Shown: piece by piece, positions 6,935 through 18,820 of the stretch | Numbering within the stretch: the stretch's first letter is position 1 | How the letters are laid out: every line of letters begins with the position of its first letter | From: Chlamydiae bacterium CG10_big_fil_rev_8_21_14_0_10_42_34 | Lineage (GTDB): Bacteria > Chlamydiota > Chlamydiia > Chlamydiales > SM23-39 | DNA: 64,000 nucleotides | Direction: 5' to 3' | Assembly: GCA_002773795.1 (NCBI GenBank) | Contig: PFAD01000018.1 | Location: forward strand, 26,023 to 90,022 | The notes under the pieces: generated by a model | Database searches by the model: none | Told to the model about the DNA's origin: nothing | Seen by the model: only the letters and a program-made list of their open reading frames with translations | Position numbers and translations under genes: made by a program

Positions 6935-8527
6935 ATGATTACATTAGAAAATATTTCAAAGAAAATTGGAAGTCGCACTCTTTTTGAAGATGTGGCCTTC
7001 ACCTTTAATGATGGATGCCGATACGGGTTAACCGGCCCAAATGGCTGTGGAAAATCGACCTTGCTCAAGATTATCATGGGCGTCGAGCCGCAAACAACAG
7101 GGATCGTCTCTTTACCTAAAAAAGTGGGTTTCCTCAAGCAACGTATCGAAGATTTTAGAGATCACACCGTATTAAATACAGTGATCATGGGCAATAGCCG
7201 CCTATGGGCTGCGCTAGCTGAACGAGATCGCCTCTATGAAGAAGAGATGACTGATGCAATTGGAATGCGACTTGGTGAGCTTGAAGAAGTCATTGCAGAT
7301 GAAGATGGCTACTCAGCGGAATCAGAGGCAGAAATCGTCCTTATTGGAATGGGGATCCCAGAAGAGCTCCACCAAAAAAAAATGCATGAAATCCCGACCG
7401 ACCGGCAATTTCGAGCGCTCCTATGCCAAGCTCTTTTCGGCCACCCCGAAGCGCTCCTACTCGACGAACCGACAAACCACCTTGACCTTGAATCAATCTC
7501 TTGGCTTGAAGGGTTTCTCCACAATTATAACGGAACGCTTGTCGTAGTCAGTCACGACCGCCATTTTCTCAACTCGATTTGTACGCACATTGCCGATATC
7601 GATTATGAAACAATCATCACATATCCGGGAAATTACGATGCGATGTATGAAACAAAGACAGCGATGCGATCAAGAGCAGAAGATGAAAACAAATCCAAAG
7701 AGAAAAAAATCTCACAATTGAAAGATTTCGTTGCAAAGTTCGGCGCAGGAACAAGGGCCAGCCAAGTGCAGTCCCGCGTTCGTGAAATCGACCGACTTCA
7801 ACCTACTGAGTTGAAAAAGTCAAACATCCAACGCCCCTACATACGCTTTCCCGTTCCTGAAAAGCAATCTGGCCAAGTAGTTCTTAAGGGACAAAACCTC
7901 ACCAAAGGCTACGGCAACGGCCCAGTCATTAAAGATTTTTCTTTTGAGATCCATAGAGGCGATAAAATCGCAGTGATCGGAAATAACGGAAGAGGAAAAA
8001 CAACTCTACTCAAGATGCTAGCAGGACTTCTAACGCCAGATAGCGGCACGCTCACAATTGGCCACGGCGTAAACGCAGGCTATTTCCCGCAAAATCACGG
8101 CGAAGTCCTCAATAAACATAGCAAAGAGACAGCTTTTGATTGGTTAAAGAGCCGTAAAGAGATCGTTTTCGATCAAGACGTGCGAGGGATTTTAGGAAAA
8201 ATGCTCTTTGGGGGTGACGATGCATTTAAGCCGCTGCCCAATCTTTCTGGAGGAGAGGCTGCTCGCCTAATCATCGGAGGACTGATCCTTACCACTCCAA
8301 ATACACTCATCTTTGACGAGCCAAACGGACACTTGGATCTTGAAGCTGTATCTGCACTTGCTTGGGGAATCGACGATTTTAAAGGAACTGCCATCGTCGC
8401 AACGCACGATAGGGATTTGATCAACGGTTTTGCAAAAAAAATCATTGCGCTTGAAAGCGACGGCATTCATTTCCATGCAGGGCCTTTAGAAGAATACTTA
8501 GAAAAGAAAAAAGCGCTCTCAAAATGA
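6935..8527 (+). CDS. ABC-F family ATPase (YbiT-like)
   Basis: Two ABC domains (GPNGCGKST, GNNGRGKTT; LLLDEPTNHLD) and no TM segments. Confidence 0.9.
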   Translation: MITLENISKKIGSRTLFEDVAFTFNDGCRYGLTGPNGCGKSTLLKIIMGVEPQTTGIVSLPKKVGFLKQRIEDFRDHTVLNTVIMGNSRLWAALAERDRLYEEEMTDAIGMRLGELEEVIADEDGYSAESEAEIVLIGMGIPEELHQKKMHEIPTDRQFRALLCQALFGHPEALLLDEPTNHLDLESISWLEGFLHNYNGTLVVVSHDRHFLNSICTHIADIDYETIITYPGNYDAMYETKTAMRSRAEDENKSKEKKISQLKDFVAKFGAGTRASQVQSRVREIDRLQPTELKKSNIQRPYIRFPVPEKQSGQVVLKGQNLTKGYGNGPVIKDFSFEIHRGDKIAVIGNNGRGKTTLLKMLAGLLTPDSGTLTIGHGVNAGYFPQNHGEVLNKHSKETAFDWLKSRKEIVFDQDVRGILGKMLFGGDDAFKPLPNLSGGEAARLIIGGLILTTPNTLIFDEPNGHLDLEAVSALAWGIDDFKGTAIVATHDRDLINGFAKKIIALESDGIHFHAGPLEEYLEKKKALSK

Positions 8528-8907
8528 CCGAACTGATCTATTTAGCCTGCCCTTTTCGTCACACAGACCCTACTGTACAGCGGAAGCGTTGCGCCGCAGT
8601 CCATTACACGGCGGCACAACTGTCTTTGAAGGGACACCACGTGTTTTCTCCCCTTACGCATAACGAAACTCTAATTGACATTCTCAACGACAGTCTTCCC
8701 GGCGAACATTGGATGCAATTTGATCTTGCCATATTGGCGGCATGCAAACATCTTTACGTTTTAAAGATGCAAGACTGGCAATTATCGAAGGGAGTCCAAA
8801 GAGAAATTGCCTTTGCGAAAGAAAGAGGGATCACCGTCCATGAAATTGATCCCCCAGAAGAAAGCGAATATATTTCCCTCGTAAAAACAGACCCTATTTC
8901 TCAATAA
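8524..8907 (+). CDS. DUF1937 / nucleoside 2-deoxyribosyltransferase-like protein
   Basis: IYLACPF...VFSPLTH...W..FD..IL..C...SKGVQREI..A pattern; ATGA overlap with the ABC-F gene. Confidence 0.7.
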   Translation: MTELIYLACPFRHTDPTVQRKRCAAVHYTAAQLSLKGHHVFSPLTHNETLIDILNDSLPGEHWMQFDLAILAACKHLYVLKMQDWQLSKGVQREIAFAKERGITVHEIDPPEESEYISLVKTDPISQ

Positions 8908-9737: not shown

Positions 9738-9891
9738 CTAAAACCCCCTTAAAAAGGGGTAAACTTATATCTTTAAAATAGATTCTAAGTCAACTAGTGC
9801 AAAAAGATTCAAAAACGCAAGTGAAAAATAGGAGCAGGAAAATCTCATGTTAAGGTATTCTCTCAGCATTTTTCAACCTTTCAAAAGGCTT

Positions 9892-10605
9892 ATGTTTATA
9901 AACAGATTTTCATCATTGTTATTCCAGTTTGCATCACAAAATCTTGAAGCAGTTGATAAAACAAACCCCTTTTATAGTCCTACAAAATTTCCCTTTGAAT
10001 CGTATGTCGAAAGATTTTCTCATTATTCAGAACTTGAAGAACAGGCTTTTAAGAACATTTGCATAATCACAGCGATTTACATAGACAGAGCCTATGCTTC
10101 AGGCAAAATAATTAATCACCCCAATACCATCCATCAATTATTTGGAACCGCTTTTGTGATTTCTCAAAAAATGATCCTTGATAATCACTATGCATTCGAC
10201 TATTACGCAAAAATCCTTGGCATCTCTCCCCAAAAGCTCTTTGAATTAGAGCTTATCTTTTTTGAAGCTCTTAAATGGAACGCACATATAGATCAAAGTA
10301 CTTATAAAAAATATGTGAATAAGTGGAATGAAAATCTATCAGACAATGAACGAATTGATTTTAAGGAGCCCATTGATTTTAAGGAGCCCACCGAGTCTTC
10401 GATAATGACAACTAAGAAAAATAAACCAGCAGCCCCCCCCGAAAAGAAGAAAATTCCAAGCACTCCTAAAGAATATGTACTAAAGAAAATTCCAACCACT
10501 CCAAAAACAGAAATAGTAAATGCACAATCATACACTCCAAGAAATCCGAGACGCTTTTCAGGTCAACAAGTTATCAGCAGCGGTCCTTCTTGCCCGATTG
10601 TGTAA
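9892..10605 (+). CDS. Eukaryote-like Pho80/PCL-type cyclin-domain protein with C-terminal CaaX (CPIV)
   Basis: SYVERF...IITAIYIDRA...NTIHQLFGTAFVISQKMILDNHY...YAKILGI...LFELELIFFEALKW follows the Pho80-like cyclin pattern; ATG 9892 chosen by alignment with the paralog at 17748. Confidence 0.75.
   Translation: MFINRFSSLLFQFASQNLEAVDKTNPFYSPTKFPFESYVERFSHYSELEEQAFKNICIITAIYIDRAYASGKIINHPNTIHQLFGTAFVISQKMILDNHYAFDYYAKILGISPQKLFELELIFFEALKWNAHIDQSTYKKYVNKWNENLSDNERIDFKEPIDFKEPTESSIMTTKKNKPAAPPEKKKIPSTPKEYVLKKIPTTPKTEIVNAQSYTPRNPRRFSGQQVISSGPSCPIV
10354..10389 (+). repeat. Exact 18-bp tandem duplication (ATTGATTTTAAGGAGCCC x2 = IDFKEP x2)
   Basis: Directly visible; in frame within the cyclin gene. 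Confidence 0.95.
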
Positions 10606-10637
10606 GTAAGCCCCGCTAGTTTTTACCTGACGTTTTT

Positions 10638-11918
10638 CTATTCTTCAGCAAGTGGCACCTGACGCAGCCCAAAATAGCTGTAAAAGAACCGATTGAACCA
10701 CATTGGGAGCCATCCTTGCATTGGTTTGCGATACCCGGTTGCTTCAGCCACCTTCTCTTTGCCCGCTTGGTTTATATAAACTTGGCTAATCACAACCTCA
10801 TCTTCATCGATAGTGAAACCCGAGGGGAAAATATCGAGCTCTGTCTCTGAGGCTGCAGTAATTGGGCCCGACAAGTTAGAATCAGCTCGGATCATGCACT
10901 TAAAGCGGTGCATATTGCCCGCATCAAATCTTAAAGTTGCCTCTTCTCTAGGCGCAAAGGAAAAAGCCAAATCAACACCTTCTGCATTTACTTGGCCCCT
11001 TATCTGATCAAGAACACTTTCAGGATCGATTGCATCGGTAAAAATGTGAATGAAGAAGTTATATTCTCCCTCATTTTTTTTCATTTCAATGACCCTATTT
11101 AATTCGCCGATATAAAAATTCAAAGAGGGCAGCTTTAGTGGGTGAAGCGTTTTTGTGTTATTATCGTCGTAATCTCCTCCATCGCGAATATGAAGAGCGA
11201 TCGGATAAGCATCTTCTGGCAACTCGAGCTGCTCACTTTCTATAGTAAGTAACTGACTCAAACGCACTTTATGCTGAGTCCAATCGGGATGGTACTTTGG
11301 CATAGAGCAGGCATCTCCTTCCTTTTCTATTTCTCTATAAAAAGATGCAAACGGCAGTAGATAAAGCACTGATTGCGTTTTGTCTGCACCTTTTAGAGCT
11401 TCAACTTGCTCTTGTGTATTTAAATAGACAACTTCACGGAAGTATTTAGGCCCTCTATTTTGCTCCATTTGGTCGAAGAAAAAAATTTCAGACCCCTTAA
11501 ACGGCTTATAATAGAGCGGCATGTCCACCTCATCCGCTGCAACCCTCGCCCTTAAATAAGTGACAGTGCGATCCCCGGTTCTACTAAACTGTTTTAAAAT
11601 TAAGGGAATGTAGTCGCTTATTTCAGACTGAGATACTTTTTCGTCAAATTTTGCATATAAGTCCACAAGCTTTGAAGCTGCCCCCATACCCGCTAATCCA
11701 ATCGATGGTGCAACAGCCAAGGTTGCTACGAAAAAAGCGGCGGAACGCTTAAAAACTTCGAATACCCGCTGACAGCCCTCCTGCTTACCATCCATAGCCG
11801 ATATTGAGTATCCATAAGCCTCAACGCACTTTCTGATCGGCTCCATGAGGGTATCTCCCATCAAATCTTCATCTCCCATCGCAGTGGTTGCATTGTGTAA
11901 AAGGGCATCAACACTCAT
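10638..11918 (-). CDS. Hypothetical protein with N-terminal hydrophobic segment and C-terminal GT11/NodZ-like (fucosyltransferase-like) motifs
   Basis: IALHIRDGGDY resembles HxRRGDY; LNFY...FFIHIFTD resembles motif II. Confidence 0.5.
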   Translation of the reverse strand: MSVDALLHNATTAMGDEDLMGDTLMEPIRKCVEAYGYSISAMDGKQEGCQRVFEVFKRSAAFFVATLAVAPSIGLAGMGAASKLVDLYAKFDEKVSQSEISDYIPLILKQFSRTGDRTVTYLRARVAADEVDMPLYYKPFKGSEIFFFDQMEQNRGPKYFREVVYLNTQEQVEALKGADKTQSVLYLLPFASFYREIEKEGDACSMPKYHPDWTQHKVRLSQLLTIESEQLELPEDAYPIALHIRDGGDYDDNNTKTLHPLKLPSLNFYIGELNRVIEMKKNEGEYNFFIHIFTDAIDPESVLDQIRGQVNAEGVDLAFSFAPREEATLRFDAGNMHRFKCMIRADSNLSGPITAASETELDIFPSGFTIDEDEVVISQVYINQAGKEKVAEATGYRKPMQGWLPMWFNRFFYSYFGLRQVPLAEE

Positions 11919-12026
11919 AAATCCTCACATTTTTTTGGCGGACAGTTTACAGAATCCACAAAATACTTTCAATCATTTTTCACAATCGATAGACTCTTTC
12001 ACCGACCCCTTCAGAAGGAGAAAAAC

Positions 12027-13034
12027 ATGAAAGTCAACTCGCCACTACCCCCTACCCATCCACTGATCAATCCTACCAACCAATCTCCAAGCTGCCTAAC
12101 CAAGCTCTTTAAATGCACTATTGAGCCCTTCGTCGGATCGATTATAAAAATTTCCCTTTACCGCTCGGCCTACCTTAGAGAGGGATTCTCCAAATGGATC
12201 GTTTTGCCCATAGTAAGAAAAATTGGCAACTGCTGGCTTGAGGCCGAAAACCTTCCCGCGATGTTCACCTCTTTCGACAAAAAAAGGCTCGACGATACGG
12301 AAGCAAGCCTTTTACAAATTGGCGAAAAAACGATCCTAAAAGTGGATGAAGAGAGATCGATCCCTTTTGTCCATTTTCAAAAAGACAAAAACAACCGGTC
12401 CACTTGCGTCCTTTACCTCAATGGATTTGGCCTCCCCTATCAGACAGCAAAAAACTTTATCCATAAGCATCTCGATGAAGACTTTGATTTTGCCGTCTTT
12501 GAGTGGGGAAATAAGGTCTCAATGCAAGGTTTTGTCGAAGACGCAGAGGCTGCCTATCAAGCTCTCATTGAAAAAGGATACCAACCCAATCAAATCAAGG
12601 TTTTGGGCTATTGCGGAACAACTTACGTTGCAACTTACTTAAAAGCAAAACACCACCAAGAAGGGCTCGATGCCATCTTGGTTGATCCCCACACCTCTTT
12701 TCGAGAAGTGGTAGATCAAGCAAATCCGATTGGGAAATATGGGGTAGGCGCGATCGCAACCGAAGAGTACGATCTCGACAACATCAATACGCTCAGCCAT
12801 TTGAAACACACAGGTGCATCTACATGTCTTGTCATCGATCCTGAAAACTTAATCACCCCACCAGACACTGTTGAGCGCTTACAAAATGCACTTGCGCAAA
12901 GTGGAGTTACAACAATCCGAACTCAAGGGAAGATGAATAAGCAATTTAATACCCCTGAAATCTGGAACCAGTACATTCAGTTTCTACGTCGCGACCAATT
13001 GCAACAAGAAGAGATGAAAGAACAAGACCTTTAG
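12027..13034 (+). CDS. Alpha/beta-hydrolase-fold protein (ABHD12/13/17-like core, atypical nucleophile), putative effector
   Basis: VLYLNGFG; DAEAAYQALIEKGYQPNQIKVLGYCGT; Pro/Ser/Thr-rich N-terminus; GGAG SD. Confidence 0.6.
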   Translation: MKVNSPLPPTHPLINPTNQSPSCLTKLFKCTIEPFVGSIIKISLYRSAYLREGFSKWIVLPIVRKIGNCWLEAENLPAMFTSFDKKRLDDTEASLLQIGEKTILKVDEERSIPFVHFQKDKNNRSTCVLYLNGFGLPYQTAKNFIHKHLDEDFDFAVFEWGNKVSMQGFVEDAEAAYQALIEKGYQPNQIKVLGYCGTTYVATYLKAKHHQEGLDAILVDPHTSFREVVDQANPIGKYGVGAIATEEYDLDNINTLSHLKHTGASTCLVIDPENLITPPDTVERLQNALAQSGVTTIRTQGKMNKQFNTPEIWNQYIQFLRRDQLQQEEMKEQDL

Positions 13035-13216
13035 AAAGATTGAGCTGGGTAAAAAAGGGTTGTAACAAAGCACATCCCCAAGCGCTCCATCTCTTCGATC
13101 GAAGAGATATTGAGCTTAGGCGTACAGGCAAAGATATTCGATAGCCTACAAGTAGTAAACCCATATGCTGCAAGGGCATGAGCAGCCTCTGTTGCATATC
13201 CATTCTTCCGATGAGG
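13031..13216 (-). pseudogene. C-terminal remnant of a RimJ/RimL-type GNAT acetyltransferase
   Basis: A frame not in the ORF track reads HRKNGYATEAAHALAAYGFTTCRLSNIFACTPKLNISSIEEMERLGMCF...stop at 13031; the N-terminal half is missing. Confidence 0.75.
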
Positions 13217-13260
13217 GGGGTATGAAAAATACGGCAGGAAGAAGAGATGAAAGAGGAATC

Positions 13261-13617
13261 TTAAGGACGTTCAGTTAAAGAGAGCTTATCAAGCCATTCT
13301 TGTCTTATAGGGCTAAATATTTCTAATACCTCGCTGTCTTCAATCACTTCACAACTATGTACAATTTTTGAGGGAATTAGAATAGCATTCCCTGCATCTA
13401 TAATGTACGTTTGATCATGAATTGTAAACTTAAGCTTTCCTCGTAAAACAAGTGTTAACTGCTCATTTTCATGAGCATCATTCATTGCAACATGTCCTTG
13501 CTTGATTCTGTGCTCTACAAGCATCAGTTTTTCTCCTGCAATAAAGCGAGAGGAAACCTTTGGCAATAGAGGGTGGAAAGGCGCCTTTGAAAATTCAATA
13601 ATTTGAGCGGACTTCAT
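13261..13617 (-). CDS. Cupin domain protein
   Basis: AHENEQLTLVLRGKLKF...AGNAILIPSKIVHS...EIFSPIR. Confidence 0.85.
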   Translation of the reverse strand: MKSAQIIEFSKAPFHPLLPKVSSRFIAGEKLMLVEHRIKQGHVAMNDAHENEQLTLVLRGKLKFTIHDQTYIIDAGNAILIPSKIVHSCEVIEDSEVLEIFSPIRQEWLDKLSLTERP

Positions 13618-13719
13618 ATTTTTAAATAAAATTTTTCAGAATTTCTCAAAAGAGACCTTTCTTAGAGAACAGCTCTCATATAATTGAAATTTTCTGATTG
13701 TTTAAAAGTACCTGACTTT

Positions 13720-13910
13720 TTTTCCTCATAGGTCATTTTGCCCATAGTAAAAATAATTGGCAATCTCTGGCTTCACTCTGAAGGCCATCCCTCGATGTTT
13801 ACCTCTTTCGACAAGGAAAGACTGGACAATACGGAGACAACCCTTTTAAAAATCTGCCATAAAACAATCCTAAAAGCGTCTGAAGAGAGATCGATTCCTT
13901 TTACTTATTT
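13720..13910 (+). pseudogene. Degenerate partial copy of the 12027 hydrolase gene
   Basis: FSS*VILPIVKIIGNLWLHSEGHPSMFTSFDKERLDNTE...EERSIPF aligns with FSKWIVLPIVRKIGNCWLEAENLPAMFTSFDKKRLDDTE...EERSIPF (about 12186-12376). Confidence 0.85.
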
Positions 13911-13973
13911 TTTTTGTGTATAGAAAACTTGTTCTTGATAGACTGCCGAAAACGTTACTTTTAAGATCGATGA

Positions 13974-15319
13974 ATGAACATTTTGATTCTCCTCCCAGCA
14001 CTACTGGTATGTATCTATGTCCTGTTAGCCTATAAATCCTTTTTTCAATCAATGACCTACTCCCAAAATTTACTGCAACAATATCAAAATGACTCTCAGA
14101 AAACCAGAAAGACAGACATTCATTTGTACGTAGTTATTCCAGCATATCAAGAGCAAAATATAATACAAAAAACCCTTGATTATTTTTGTAAGATCCTTTT
14201 TTCACAAAATATTTCCAATACAACTCTTATAGTTGCATTGGATGGTAAAGAAAAAAAAATCACAAAGGAATAACGACAAAGCAAATCATCGAAGTTTATC
14301 GCAAAAACCATCCGCAGCTTATGGATCTCCTTCGACTTGTTGAATATTGTGGAACGGGTCGAAGCCGAGCTAAACAACTCAATGAAGTATTGCACTGGAT
14401 CGACCAATCAACGAAAGACCAAATGCTCGATCCAAACCAAGTATGGGTTGCTGTCTACGACGCAGATTCAAGGCCGCATCCTAAAACTTTTGATTATTTT
14501 TTATGGAAAATACAAAAGAATAAAGAATTGAAAGCCTTTCAGCAAACAATCGATTATCGACTCAATGAAAAATCACTCATCAAAAATCCCACTCTTTGGG
14601 CAAACAGTATTCATCATACTGCCCGATGCTACCTATCTGAAATACCTTTATTCCTCAACTCAAATGCGCGCATTCAAAAGGGGAAAAAATCGAATTATCC
14701 CCCTTACTATATGGGCCATGGGGAGTTTATTCGTCTAGATCTCCTAAAACAAGTTGGTGGATTTCCAAATGAGGGCTTCTGTGACGGAATTCAATTAGGA
14801 TTTGTGGTTACTCTATGCGATCAAGCAACTGAAATCATCCCCTATCCTGATTTTTGTGAGTCACCAGCTTCCCTAAGCTCCATGATTGAACAACATAGTA
14901 TGTGGTTTACAGGTCTTCTTTCGGTTTTTTCTCATATTCTTCGTAATAAAAAAGGGTCTCTTCTCGCTTTAAGGCAGTGCCTTTTTTATCTAGGGCAATC
15001 GACTATTTGGTTTATATGCCCTTTATTCTTTTTCACTCTTTTTCTGGCTTGTTTCCATCAATTCCTTGGCAATCCGTTTGCAATCATCTCATTCATTTTA
15101 ATTTCTGGATCTATCCTAGCCTATATTCGATTGATCGGGCGGGTTTCTTTAGAGCTAGACAAAACTTTCTCTCGTGAAGGAGTTGGTGCTATAAAATCTT
15201 GGGGGTGGGTGATTCTATCAATTTCAGCAAGATCAATTGGCCCTTGGGTATCAATTTTTCGCTTGCTTAAGCGCAAAGTGTTTAATCACCCGTTAAACTT
15301 TCGAAAAATGCCTAGGTAA
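13974..15319 (+). pseudogene. GT2 glycosyltransferase split by a frameshift at an A9 tract (14251-14259)
   Basis: ORF 13974-14273 has VVIPAYQEQ...ALDG; the -1 frame continues KNHKGITTKQII...YDADSRP...QHSMW and TM helices; one extra A joins them. Confidence 0.8.
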
Positions 15320-15322
15320 GCA

Positions 15323-16615
15323 ATGCCCCAGTCAATAGACTTCAAGAATAAATTCAAACATTTACGCGATACTCTTGTGGTAATCGCAATGCTTTTCGCC
15401 GGTTTTTGCGTGAGTTATTTACTCAATATTTACATCTCTCAATGGATCGGAGTAGAAAAATATGGTGACTTTTCTATCGTTCGATCGATAGTCAATATTC
15501 TAACTCCTATTATTCTAATGGGAGGAATAGAATCAGTCTTTAAGTTTATCCCCTATTATCGAGTTCATCATCCTGAACTTTTAAAAGGTTATCTCTATTT
15601 TTTTCTTCTTATAGGAACTCTATTTCTCGTTCTATTTGGAATCCTAAGCCTCTTTTTTTTAGTTTTTTCTTCTATGAACGATACACTTTTGAATATGATT
15701 TTGGTCTTTTTATGGCTCATCCCAGCAAGCGCCATATTAGTTTTATTGGGAAGAACTTTACAAAGCTATGACAAACCGATTTTTACTTCCTTTATGTATT
15801 CAATTTGTCTGCCTGGCCTTACTCTTTTTTTTGGTTTTTGGATTTATTCTATACAAAATCAGATCAATCTTTGGGAAATTCTTACAATCTATGGCTTGGC
15901 GATGCTTGCGATTAGTATCGTATTTGCTTGGTTAATATACAAATACCTTTTACATGATTTTAATAGAGTAACCCCTAACTACAGAAAGAAAGCTTGGATC
16001 CAAACCTCATTACAGCTTGCATCATATGTCATTCCACTTGAAATTCTCAATCAGACAAATTTAATTCTATTAGGGATTTTTGATCCTAACAAACGGACTG
16101 TTGGAATCTTCGCTGCTATTCTTGTAATATCAACCCTCCAGTGGAAAATTTATCAAGCAGTTAAAATCGTATTCAGCCCTATAATTAATCCCGCAGTTCA
16201 CAGCAATGATCATTCTTTATTAAGAACTTTATTCCGAAGAAGTACCTTGAATTTGATTTCGATAGTCATTCCAACAACAGTGTTACTGGTTCTCTTTTCC
16301 AGACCTCTTTTACAGTTATTTGGAGAAGCGTACACAGAAGCCACACTGCCGTTTACAATTCTTATCATTAGTAAAGGAATTTCGATTTGCTTTGGGATGT
16401 CTTCAGTATTTTTACAATACAGTCATTATCATCGATCGACAATCTTGCCATCAACTACCCTTTTATTGGTCAATATTGTGCTTTGCTTGTTCCTCATTCC
16501 CCCATATGGAATTTTGGGAGCTACAATCGCTCTTGCAGTCACTCGTCTCGCACTCGAAATATGGTATACAATTTTGATGGTTCACAAAAAAATGTTAAAG
16601 GTAAAGTCATGCTGA
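15323..16615 (+). CDS. Wzx/MOP-family oligosaccharide flippase
   Basis: 12+ TM helices; GVEKYGDFS near the N-terminus and LIPPYGILGATIA near the C-terminus. Confidence 0.85.
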   Translation: MPQSIDFKNKFKHLRDTLVVIAMLFAGFCVSYLLNIYISQWIGVEKYGDFSIVRSIVNILTPIILMGGIESVFKFIPYYRVHHPELLKGYLYFFLLIGTLFLVLFGILSLFFLVFSSMNDTLLNMILVFLWLIPASAILVLLGRTLQSYDKPIFTSFMYSICLPGLTLFFGFWIYSIQNQINLWEILTIYGLAMLAISIVFAWLIYKYLLHDFNRVTPNYRKKAWIQTSLQLASYVIPLEILNQTNLILLGIFDPNKRTVGIFAAILVISTLQWKIYQAVKIVFSPIINPAVHSNDHSLLRTLFRRSTLNLISIVIPTTVLLVLFSRPLLQLFGEAYTEATLPFTILIISKGISICFGMSSVFLQYSHYHRSTILPSTTLLLVNIVLCLFLIPPYGILGATIALAVTRLALEIWYTILMVHKKMLKVKSC

Positions 16616-17280
16616 ATGAAAACGATTCCCTCCAAACAATCTGCGAATTTATCAAAAAAGAACACTCCTGCAAAGCAATCATTTTATACGGTTCTCGTGC
16701 AAAAAAAACCGCTTCTCCTAAGAGCGATTACGACTTAGCAATTGTGCGTGATTCTAACTCTAAAGAACTTCTCTATAGGCAACTTATTAATCCATTCAAC
16801 TTAGAACTCGATTGCGTTTTTATTCCCCTTAAACGCGTTCATGCATTTTTAGAGCAAAAACATGCAAAATATGATGAGCCCTTCAGGTACTTTTACAAGG
16901 GGAAAAACATCGATCAGACAACTTCGATTGGAAAACAGCTAATCGATAAAATCGAATATTTCATTAAATCAGGTCCTAAACCCATTTCTGAAGGAGATAA
17001 ACAAGAACGAGTCAGATGGCTTAATAAAATGCTGAACAGATCTTATATCCACACTCCAGTTTATCAGTTCCGCAAATATGAATTTTTTACCCATCTTCTA
17101 TACAATTATTTTTATCTCCGAGATCGATGGTACCTCGGGGCAAAAGAAAGTTTCTTGCAACTTGAAGAACAGGATCCAAAAACCTATGATGCCTTCTTAC
17201 AAATCATGAATGGCAATTTCAAAGATGAAGACTTAATTAACCTTTTAACAAAAATCCAAAATTATCAATCAAATATATAG
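16609..17280 (+). CDS. Pol-beta-like nucleotidyltransferase
   Basis: IILYGSRAK...SDYDLAI (GS...DxD); overlaps the flippase stop. Confidence 0.8.
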   Translation: MLNENDSLQTICEFIKKEHSCKAIILYGSRAKKTASPKSDYDLAIVRDSNSKELLYRQLINPFNLELDCVFIPLKRVHAFLEQKHAKYDEPFRYFYKGKNIDQTTSIGKQLIDKIEYFIKSGPKPISEGDKQERVRWLNKMLNRSYIHTPVYQFRKYEFFTHLLYNYFYLRDRWYLGAKESFLQLEEQDPKTYDAFLQIMNGNFKDEDLINLLTKIQNYQSNI

Positions 17281-17427
17281 ATTTTAAAAGCACACGAACC
17301 TATCCCAATAGGGTGTGCACTTTTTCACCTGCCAATTTTTTTGCGAGACGTCCTAAATCTTCAAGTCTATTTCGTATTGGTCATTCAAGCAAAAAAAATT
17401 GAGAAAGATGGGCTTAAGCAAAGAATC

Positions 17428-17589
17428 CGGGACGCAAGCATCGATCAAAAGATCTATAAGAAGTATGCAAACAAGTAGAATGAACAAATCGATTTCAACA
17501 ACCCTATCGAAACCGTAAGAGAGGGCCGCTCACCGGATAGAAAGGCTGCCCTAATCACTAAAAAGTCACCTTCTTGCACGCTTCTCTAG
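17428..17589 (+). pseudogene. C-terminal remnant of a third cyclin-CaaX paralog
   Basis: Reads RDASIDQKIYKKYANK*NEQIDFNNPIE...KKSPSCTLL*; TAG at 17476 where both paralogs have TGG. Confidence 0.85.
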
Positions 17590-17747
17590 CATCCAACACA
17601 GCCATCTGAATAAGAACTTAAGGGGATGTTTTTTTCAAAAATTTCGAACACCTAAAAGAACCAAAAAATTGTCCTTCAAATTTAAGAAAAACAAAGGAAT
17701 AATACCTTACGCAATAAAATTAACATACCAGCAAAAAACATAATTAA

Positions 17748-18395
17748 ATGTTCATAAAAAACTTTTCCGATTTCCTTGAGCAAGTATCGAATAAGCCCTA
17801 TCCCGATGCAGAAAACCCTTTGATTGTAGATCCCTTTCGAATCGAAACTCCAGTACCTCTAAAGACCTACGTTCAAAGACTTTCTGACTTAGGAGGCCTT
17901 GAAGAACAAGCTTTCAAGCGCATTTGTATAACAACACAGATTTACATAGACAAAATCGCCCCTTCTTCAAAGATACTCCTGTCCCCTGACACGATTCATT
18001 TAATCTTTGGGACCGCATTTGCCATTTCGCAAAAAATGATTTTTGATGAACCTTGGGACAACTCTTTTTGCTCAAAGCTGCTGGGCATTCCCCTTAAAAG
18101 GCTCAATCACATTGAACTGGCTTTCTTTAAAGCTCTTCAATGGGATGCGAGTATCGGTCAAACCACCTATAAGAAATATGTGACCGCTTGGAATGAACTC
18201 TTTCCTGAAGATGAGCAAATTGCTCCAGAAGAACCGGTTCATACGCTTGTCGTTAACACATCTAGAGAAGGTCAAATACAATTGAGAATGTTTTCCCTAC
18301 TCGAAGACCATCTCAACCCAAACAAAGCACCGCCACCTGAAAAAAAAGCTTCAGGAAGTATCGAAAAGTGCTCCCCTTCTTGCATCCTTCTCTAA
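17748..18395 (+). CDS. Eukaryote-like Pho80/PCL-type cyclin-domain protein with C-terminal CaaX (CILL)
   Basis: TYVQRL...ITTQIYIDKI...DTIHLIFGTAFAISQKMIFDEPWDNSFCSKLLGIPLKRLNHIELAFFKALQW; paralog of 9892. Confidence 0.78.
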   Translation: MFIKNFSDFLEQVSNKPYPDAENPLIVDPFRIETPVPLKTYVQRLSDLGGLEEQAFKRICITTQIYIDKIAPSSKILLSPDTIHLIFGTAFAISQKMIFDEPWDNSFCSKLLGIPLKRLNHIELAFFKALQWDASIGQTTYKKYVTAWNELFPEDEQIAPEEPVHTLVVNTSREGQIQLRMFSLLEDHLNPNKAPPPEKKASGSIEKCSPSCILL

Positions 18396-18632: not shown

Positions 18633-18747
18633 AGGTGGGGAATTTCTGAGGGGAAAGTGGGGCAGTTTGGATTATCTTGATGAGGGCAGTATGAATAATA
18701 CGGCCGAAGAAAGAGAATTCGAAATGCACCGCTTTTCACCAGAAATT

Positions 18748-18820
<73 letters not shown>

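Follow-up and report, generated by a model that had tools for sequence, protein, structure and literature searches.

Two intact genes and the remnant of a third lie in the window analyzed here, a stretch of 64,000 nucleotides from contig PFAD01000018.1 of the genome Chlamydiae bacterium CG10_big_fil_rev_8_21_14_0_10_42_34. Each intact gene is predicted to encode a cyclin domain of the Pho80 type, followed by a tail with a CaaX-like ending (Cys-aliphatic-aliphatic-X). We refer to the genes as copy 1 (paralog 1), copy 2 (paralog 2), and the remnant (Table 1). Judging from their sequences, a predicted fold, and the analogy with known lipid-anchored proteins, the pair probably represents a host-lipidated mimic of eukaryotic cyclins.

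Two cyclin genes and a truncated copy

An initial annotation, made from the sequence alone, had proposed two intact, paralogous open reading frames (ORFs) at this locus, and both the ORF list and a BLASTP comparison bear this out, with 78 of 164 residues identical between the proteins (48%; E 7e-50) and all of the shared motifs quoted for the pair present in their alignment. Copy 1 could alternatively start at an in-frame ATG at 9847, which would yield a protein of 252 amino acids (aa); a GGAG lies ∼15 nucleotides (nt) before the ATG. In copy 2, a stop codon stands directly 5' of the ATG.

The third copy, located directly upstream of copy 2, was also correctly read as a remnant. Its frame reads ...DASIDQKIYKKYANK-stop-NEQIDF...KKSPSCTLL-stop, with the in-frame TAG at 17476-17478, at a site where both paralogs have Trp, and the cyclin domain is wholly gone. 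The remnant is evidently a tandem duplicate of copy 2 in truncated form, since the two sequences match at 83% from their last codons through the stop codon into the bases beyond it (repeat D5).

The core of both proteins had been assigned to the Pho80/PCL type of cyclin, with the Pfam profile PF08613 (Pho80-type Cyclin) named as the one to check it against. Both intact proteins pass this cut-off (Table 1; gathering score, 21), and both fall below threshold for Cyclin_N. A six-frame search of the genome with PF08613 returned these two genes, at 41.5 and 41.6 bits, as the sole matches. Searched alone against the sequences in the PDB, copy 2 matched cyclin Y only (8.7e-5); a family profile with copy 2 as its first row, built from 133 of the top 150 HMMER matches, found PHO80 (4.2e-31), cyclin Y (4.7e-24), and Pcl10 (3.7e-20), with cyclin D1 next and weak.

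The predicted structure agrees with these assignments. With the family alignment, AlphaFold modeled copy 2 at a mean predicted local distance difference test score (pLDDT) of 83.4 and a predicted template modeling score of 0.73, with residues 1 to 160 above 90 and the tail from residue 161 at ∼55; the single-sequence model was uninformative (pLDDT, 38). Foldseek placed Pho80, Pcl10, and cyclin Y (CCNY) at ranks 1 to 8 of the PDB matches to this predicted model, each with a probability of 1.00 and with template modeling scores of ∼0.5 over the full length, the disordered tail being counted in. Cyclins E, A, B, and D, followed by a herpesvirus cyclin and Spy1, occupied lower ranks.

Seven columns are invariant or at least 90% conserved among the 133 sequences, and all seven are kept in both paralogs (Y38, R41, H81, K93, D97, G110, and E120 in copy 1; Y41, R44, H84, K96, D100, G113, and E123 in copy 2). 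In the core, the nonsynonymous divergence between the copies (dN) is 0.43 and the synonymous divergence (dS) is ∼2.0, which indicates that the cyclin core is under purifying selection. Membership of both proteins in the Pho80/PCL/cyclin-Y family (PF08613) is therefore well supported, since the Pfam scores, the profile matches in the PDB, the predicted fold, and the seven kept columns all point to it.

Table 1. Positions of the cyclin genes, their parts, the edges of the surrounding island, and further genes for CaaX-ending orphan proteins (positions in the window unless a contig is given)
Feature	Position	Strand	Details
Copy 1 (paralog 1), cyclin with CaaX-like ending	9892..10605	+	237 aa; ends GPSCPIV-stop; ORF list, Pfam PF08613 40.5 bits
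Pho80-type cyclin domain, copy 1	9961..10278	+	residues 24-129, Pfam match
Tail linker, copy 1	10339..10590	+	Pro/Lys-rich, two short internal tandem repeats
CaaX-like box CPIV and stop codon, copy 1	10591..10605	+	codons
Third-copy remnant	17428..17589	+	last ∼53 codons only; ends SPSCTLL-stop; three-frame translation
Copy 2 (paralog 2), cyclin with putative CaaX ending	17748..18395	+	215 aa; ends SPSCILL-stop; ORF list, Pfam PF08613 40.3 bits
Pho80-type cyclin domain, copy 2	17847..18146	+	residues 34-133, Pfam match
Disordered tail linker, copy 2	18228..18380	+	residues 161-211, mean pLDDT ∼55
CaaX box CILL and stop codon, copy 2	18381..18395	+	codons
127-aa gene	8524..8907	+	tblastn; far conserved edge of island
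tRNA-Phe (GAA)	18747..18821	-	ARAGORN, Rfam; conserved edge of island
CaaX-ending orphan L042	genome G000, C8:98042-98800
CaaX-ending orphan L043	genome G000, C8:29238-30617
CaaX-ending orphan L044	genome G000, C8:169729-170430

The tails and a proposed mechanism

All three copies end in P-S-C-x-x-x-stop (GPSCPIV, SPSCILL, and SPSCTLL), and the observation that this ending sits on otherwise diverged tails holds for every one of them. The P-S-C codons (CCT TCT TGC) are the same throughout. Elsewhere in the tails, divergence is far advanced, with 12 of 62 aligned codons identical between the paralogs (dN, 1.04; dS, 1.30) and strongly differing lengths, yet P-S-C stays four to six residues from the stop codon in each copy. 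Both intact tails are Pro/Lys-rich with a net positive charge, and apart from the terminal P-S-C they have in common no more than a short patch, A-P-P-E-K-K. An extra Cys occurs at position −9 in copy 2, and KK occupies −8/−7 in the remnant, so that a flexible linker (tail pLDDT, ∼55) and a second membrane signal (basic tails, Cys at −9, and KK) are both found. The tail of copy 1 also contains internal repeats, namely, IDFKEP twice (10377-10412) and a 36-nt unit twice at 10447-10518 (repeat D6). This unit encodes KKIP(S/T)TPK..., and the repeats in the copy 1 tail contain several Thr-Pro sites.

Prenylated proteins are built in this way, with a basic, disordered linker that runs into Cys-aliphatic-aliphatic-X. 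By the classical CaaX rule, CILL (copy 2) and CTLL (remnant) fit boxes for geranylgeranylation by geranylgeranyltransferase I. Since Cxxx endings also occur by chance in this genome, the motif alone proves nothing, and since the three copies share a common ancestry, they do not represent three independent occurrences of Cys at −4. As we read the sequences, the case for a CaaX box is one of retention, that is, of Cys at −4 being kept while the tails around it drift almost freely.

The genome (1.68 Mb, 97.55% complete) contains six matches to TLC nucleotide transporters and one gene for the type III export gate SctV, and the transporters and the export gate together indicate an intracellular lifestyle. 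Neither PF01239 (PPTA, the alpha-subunit repeat of protein prenyltransferases) nor PF00432 (Prenyltrans) found a match in this 97.55%-complete genome. The general statement that bacteria have no CaaX prenyltransferase thus applies here, and by its gene content the bacterium itself is unable to prenylate proteins.

In the mechanism that we propose, an obligate intracellular chlamydia would deliver eukaryote-derived cyclins of the Pho80/PCL/cyclin-Y type into the host cytosol, where a host prenyltransferase would lipidate Cys(−4) at the end of the flexible basic tail. The prenyl group would then fix the cyclin to a membrane of the host, plausibly that of the inclusion, and the cyclin could bind a host kinase of the Pho85/CDK5/CDK14-18 type (CDK, cyclin-dependent kinase), relocating or activating it there. 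We put this whole chain forward tentatively, as possible and just short of probable. A design of this kind has known counterparts: cyclin Y, a relative of Pcl1 and Pcl2, carries an N-terminal myristate and draws Cdk14 to the plasma membrane, where it activates this kinase, and the Cdk5 activators are likewise myristoylated, according to the available text of PMC4097832; in CaaX effectors of Legionella, the Cys is needed for localization to the vacuole, according to that of PMC13081727. The chlamydial proteins would copy the N-myristate anchoring of cyclin Y and the Cdk5 activators with the anchor moved to the C terminus, which might leave the N terminus free for type III export. Whether the pair is in addition the first bacterial cyclin effector, with a CaaX box in place of the myristoyl anchor, an active host CDK on the vacuole membrane, and rewired local phosphorylation, is a further step, which we regard as possible but with more doubt than the chain itself.

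Relatives, genomic setting, and alternative readings

The two genes seem to be confined to this genome. Among 5.8 billion clustered proteins, no close relative was found and the only match was the protein itself. Exhaustive HMMER searching of 1.84 billion cluster representatives yielded 2533 family members at E ≤ 1e-3 and again no close relative, with the next match at 89 bits versus 416 bits for self. An alignment of the two paralogs gave 105 pattern matches in 185,579 species genomes and 417 in the JGI metagenome contigs, and none of either set was confirmed. PF08613 was found neither in 13 genomes of the same genus nor, within the same family, in 23 further genera, and none of 14 control prokaryote genomes matched it. 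Pho80-type cyclin domains are sporadic in Chlamydiota, with PF08613 matches in 6 of 401 sampled genomes, counting this genome and one with a broken gene and a borderline match (G254). The intact proteins found elsewhere in the phylum, L003 (G041), L004 (G301), L005 (G352), and L006 (G392), have 184 to 216 aa and are all distant, and three of the four outscore our proteins in Pfam (64 to 81 bits).

Two more family members, both distant and both metagenomic, bear on the ending. P0012 (236 aa), one of seven proteins with Cys at −4 among the 149 best other representatives, has a long tail that ends in CSIS, a good box, and is itself a singleton without relatives in the species-genome set or among the 5.8 billion proteins. 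P0013 (250 aa), on a metagenome contig of 130 kb, has an MFI..F N terminus as in our proteins and a long, repetitive tail ending in SIIL, with Ser in place of Cys. A FastTree phylogeny of 139 family rows was star-like, with 13 of 136 inner branches supported, and provided neither a sister group nor a donor for the pair.

From these searches, the pair is specific to its genome and one element of a scattered set of bacterial cyclin-domain proteins that evolve fast and occur as singletons. The annotation's "bacterial family" of CaaX cyclins did not hold up in the collections searched, and the term is not yet warranted because no close relative was found outside this genome and the other chlamydial cyclins are distant and lack the CaaX box. 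The Cys at −4, whose conservation in homologs the annotation took as a test, is shared by the three copies here and absent from the four other, distant chlamydial proteins. That the chlamydial cyclin proteins are fast-evolving singletons fits an effector-like mode of evolution.

Several observations weigh against a host-lipidated cyclin mimic. Compared with its retention on diverging tails in 3/3 copies in this genome, the Cys at −4 or a CaaX ending is found in 0/4 of the distant intact proteins L003 to L006, and among the best 149 other representatives of the 2533, it is present in 7 and missing from 142. No ortholog outside this genome that would show conservation of the CaaX box was found in the protein, genome, and metagenome collections searched. 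By chance, Cys at −4 occurs in 46 of the 1933 ORFs of ≥100 aa in this genome (2.4%), some of which are housekeeping enzymes when their sequences are read by eye. The CPIV box of copy 1, with Pro at a1 and Val at X, is presumably marginal and noncanonical under the same rule. In the model of copy 2, the fold begins at residue 2 (helix 2-15; pLDDT, 96) with no N-terminal extension, and with a stop codon 5' of its ATG, no separate secretion signal is visible on this protein. The gene set is in flux, given that one copy is already a pseudogene, and in one metagenome contig (run X5, depth 4), a G>T change at 18045 would give copy 2 a Tyr in place of Asp100, one of its near-invariant residues; the change could stem from misassembly or from variation within the population.

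Several of these points could be accommodated by host-directed cyclin mimics that are soluble, their Cxxx ending being an ancestral leftover or a redox or metal cysteine with no working prenylation signal. Chlamydial cyclin-domain proteins that do without CaaX, the noncanonical CPIV, the background of Cxxx endings among long ORFs, and the Ser-for-Cys ending of P0013, despite its similar N terminus, all fit this explanation. It leaves unexplained, however, why the position of P-S-C was held in all copies across tails with so few identities and such different lengths, and why two of the endings are textbook boxes by the classical rule; the disordered basic tail of the model also resembles the linkers that precede prenyl anchors. 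We consider a nonfunctional Cxxx unlikely, although it survives better than the other alternatives.

The genes lie in a region of ∼8.9 to 18.7 kb of the window that the comparison of loci identifies as a variable island beside tRNA-Phe. The tRNA gene and the adjacent gene for a tail-specific protease, ctp (18747-20891), are kept in 6/6 same-genus loci examined. At the other edge, the 127-aa gene is conserved with 74% identity in G010, ∼1.5 kb from ctp, and with 68% identity in G013, ∼9.5 kb from ctp with unrelated cargo between. The island is inferred because these edges are conserved while spacing and cargo differ. In four further metagenome runs, from groundwater or aquifers, contigs match the stretch with 0 to 1 differences, one of these being the G>T at 18045; the runs may stem from a single campaign and do not count as independent.

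Such a setting invites the view that the cyclin genes came in with a horizontally acquired island, in which they are now decaying passengers without a function. The island differs between species of the genus, the genes were not found in the 13 same-genus genomes, one copy is a pseudogene, and one contig carries the possible Asp100-to-Tyr variant. Decay is difficult to reconcile, though, with two copies that are intact at 48% identity, with the excess of dS over dN in their cores, with the retention of all near-invariant family residues, and with the near identity of the contigs from the four further runs, subject to their possible common origin. On balance, lost function appears quite improbable.

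A third alternative concerns the partner of the cyclins, which could be a CMGC-like kinase of the bacterium's own, acting inside the bacterium or co-delivered as a kinase-activator pair. The genome has 11 Pkinase matches, at least 3 of which look CMGC-like, including G000:C13:534836-536134. The best solved matches of a 368-aa kinase, P0155 (G000:C7:34920-36026), are MAPK13, CDK6, and PHO85 (E ∼1e-17), and those of a 510-aa kinase (G000:C13:537074-538606) are the SR protein kinase Sky1, followed by CDK6 and CDK2. The annotation's remark that bacteria have no CDKs thus needs nuance, as the best solved matches of the two kinases examined here are CMGC-group kinases, including CDK6 for both and PHO85 for P0155. 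Among 300 genomes of the phylum that were searched, only two, both of the same genus, contained relatives of P0155. No PSTAIRE-like motif was found, either by a regular-expression search of the ORFs of ≥300 aa at eight Pkinase loci or by eye in the predicted alpha-C region of P0155. The kinases are not encoded close to the cyclin genes, and a CaaX box would be useless inside a bacterium without prenyltransferases. Cofolding of copy 2 residues 1 to 165 with P0155 residues 30 to 350 gave a score of 0.00, which speaks neither for nor against binding. A partner kinase of the bacterium's own is, in our estimate, slightly less probable even than decay. In a bolder form of the host-directed mimic, the cyclins and these CMGC-like kinases together would make up an imported kinase-activator module.

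Misassembly of eukaryotic DNA into a bacterial contig, which the otherwise almost purely eukaryotic occurrence of the domain and its absence from the control prokaryote genomes might suggest, is very improbable, as the genes are intron-less, lie between bacterial genes inside a contig of 152,681 bases, and have a G+C content like that of their surroundings, and contigs from other runs span copy 1 with both flanks (9800-11327) and the stretch from the remnant into the beginning of copy 2.

The remaining content of the island is varied. Beside the cyclin genes it holds two orphan ORFs (426 and 335 aa) and a remnant of the latter, and the island's orphan genes were not found in six same-genus relatives. 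Neither orphan had a Pfam match at E ≤ 1 or a PDB match better than E 0.08; NCBIfam matches to the 335-aa protein were all subthreshold (E ≥ 0.02). The 192-nt remnant of the 335-aa ORF (12027-13034) lies at 13720-13911 and is 78% identical to 12186-12377, and its sequence points to segmental duplication and decay in the island beyond the cyclin genes. At 14 to 18 kb, a cassette of low G+C content (36%) contains a glycosyltransferase gene, a flippase-like gene, and a nucleotidyltransferase gene. A family-2 glycosyltransferase is split into 13974-14273 (99 aa, N-terminal) and 14321-15319 (332 aa) in different frames, owing to either a frameshift or an error in sequencing. Promoter-like sites show no excess, with 27 versus 21.2 ± 4.9 expected after shuffling, and none of the seven sequencing runs that contain the stretch is listed as an RNA run.

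Elsewhere in the genome, three more orphan proteins have good CaaX boxes, namely, L042 (GCCCVVS), L043 (PCVLM), and L044 (ACVLV). Homologs of L042 and L043 were not found in 70 genomes of the same family. L043 (459 aa) has an F-box-like start (E 0.21) and an ankyrin-like stretch (E 0.063), both subthreshold in Pfam, in a layout that recalls Legionella AnkB.

Novelty and comparison with known systems

Cyclins are encoded by herpesviruses, and both Legionella and Salmonella have known effectors that the host lipidates. Our literature searches found no bacterial cyclin-domain effector, with or without CaaX, although supplementary domain tables could list some, and no chlamydial CaaX effector in texts other than supplementary tables; among the papers listed for PF08613, no title was bacterial. 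Within that literature, supplements aside, the annotation's statement that no bacterial cyclin-CaaX effector has been described is upheld, and bacterial proteins with a cyclin domain seem not to have been described at all. By analogy with the effectors already known, the new element is probably the cyclin cargo in a host-lipidated, eukaryote-like effector rather than the host lipidation. If the proposal is true, CDK activation at membranes would join the host processes copied by intracellular bacteria, and the pair would be a natural convergence on the lipid-anchored CDK-activator design of cyclin Y and p35. It would also offer a compact tool (∼160 residues plus a tail) for bringing CDKs to membranes.

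Of the known systems, the herpesvirus v-cyclins resemble the proposed mimic in being pathogen-encoded and binding host CDKs, and the cyclin-CDK2 structure of a murine gammaherpesvirus (PDB 1F5Q) appears at Foldseek rank 21. They are viral, however, with a two-domain architecture of the D type, and are soluble, lack a lipid anchor, and belong to another cyclin subfamily.

Legionella AnkB, the Legionella Pel/CMP proteins, and Salmonella GtgE share with our proteins a CaaX-like ending in an intracellular bacterium. These effectors are lipidated by the host and need the Cys for localization to the vacuole or membrane, according to the available text of PMC13081727 and PMC13423502. They differ in their cargo, which comprises other domains, with no cyclin domain noted in the same portions of these papers, and those of Legionella differ in their delivery by type IV secretion. 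Their prenylation is experimentally shown, whereas that of our proteins is predicted from sequence.

The yeast Pho85 cyclins Pho80 and Pcl10 (PDB 2PK9/2PMI and 4KRC/4KRD) belong, like our proteins, to PF08613 and were the best matches by fold and, in the case of PHO80, by profile. They share the single cyclin-box domain with an N-terminal helix and the near-invariant residues. Identity in the structural alignments is only 15 to 18%, and our proteins are unlike them in being bacterial, in having no N-terminal extension, and in carrying a disordered basic tail that ends in a CaaX-like box.

Cyclin Y (CCNY; PDB 9R2I), an activator of CDK14 and CDK16, had the lowest root mean square deviation among the top fold matches (3.8 Å over 171 columns). 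In the available text of PMC4097832, it is a lipid-anchored, PCL-related cyclin that brings a CDK to a membrane, a role for which our proteins have a putative anchor. Cyclin Y is N-myristoylated and regulated by 14-3-3 proteins, whereas the chlamydial proteins are bacterial and would be anchored at the other end, through a putative C-terminal prenyl group.

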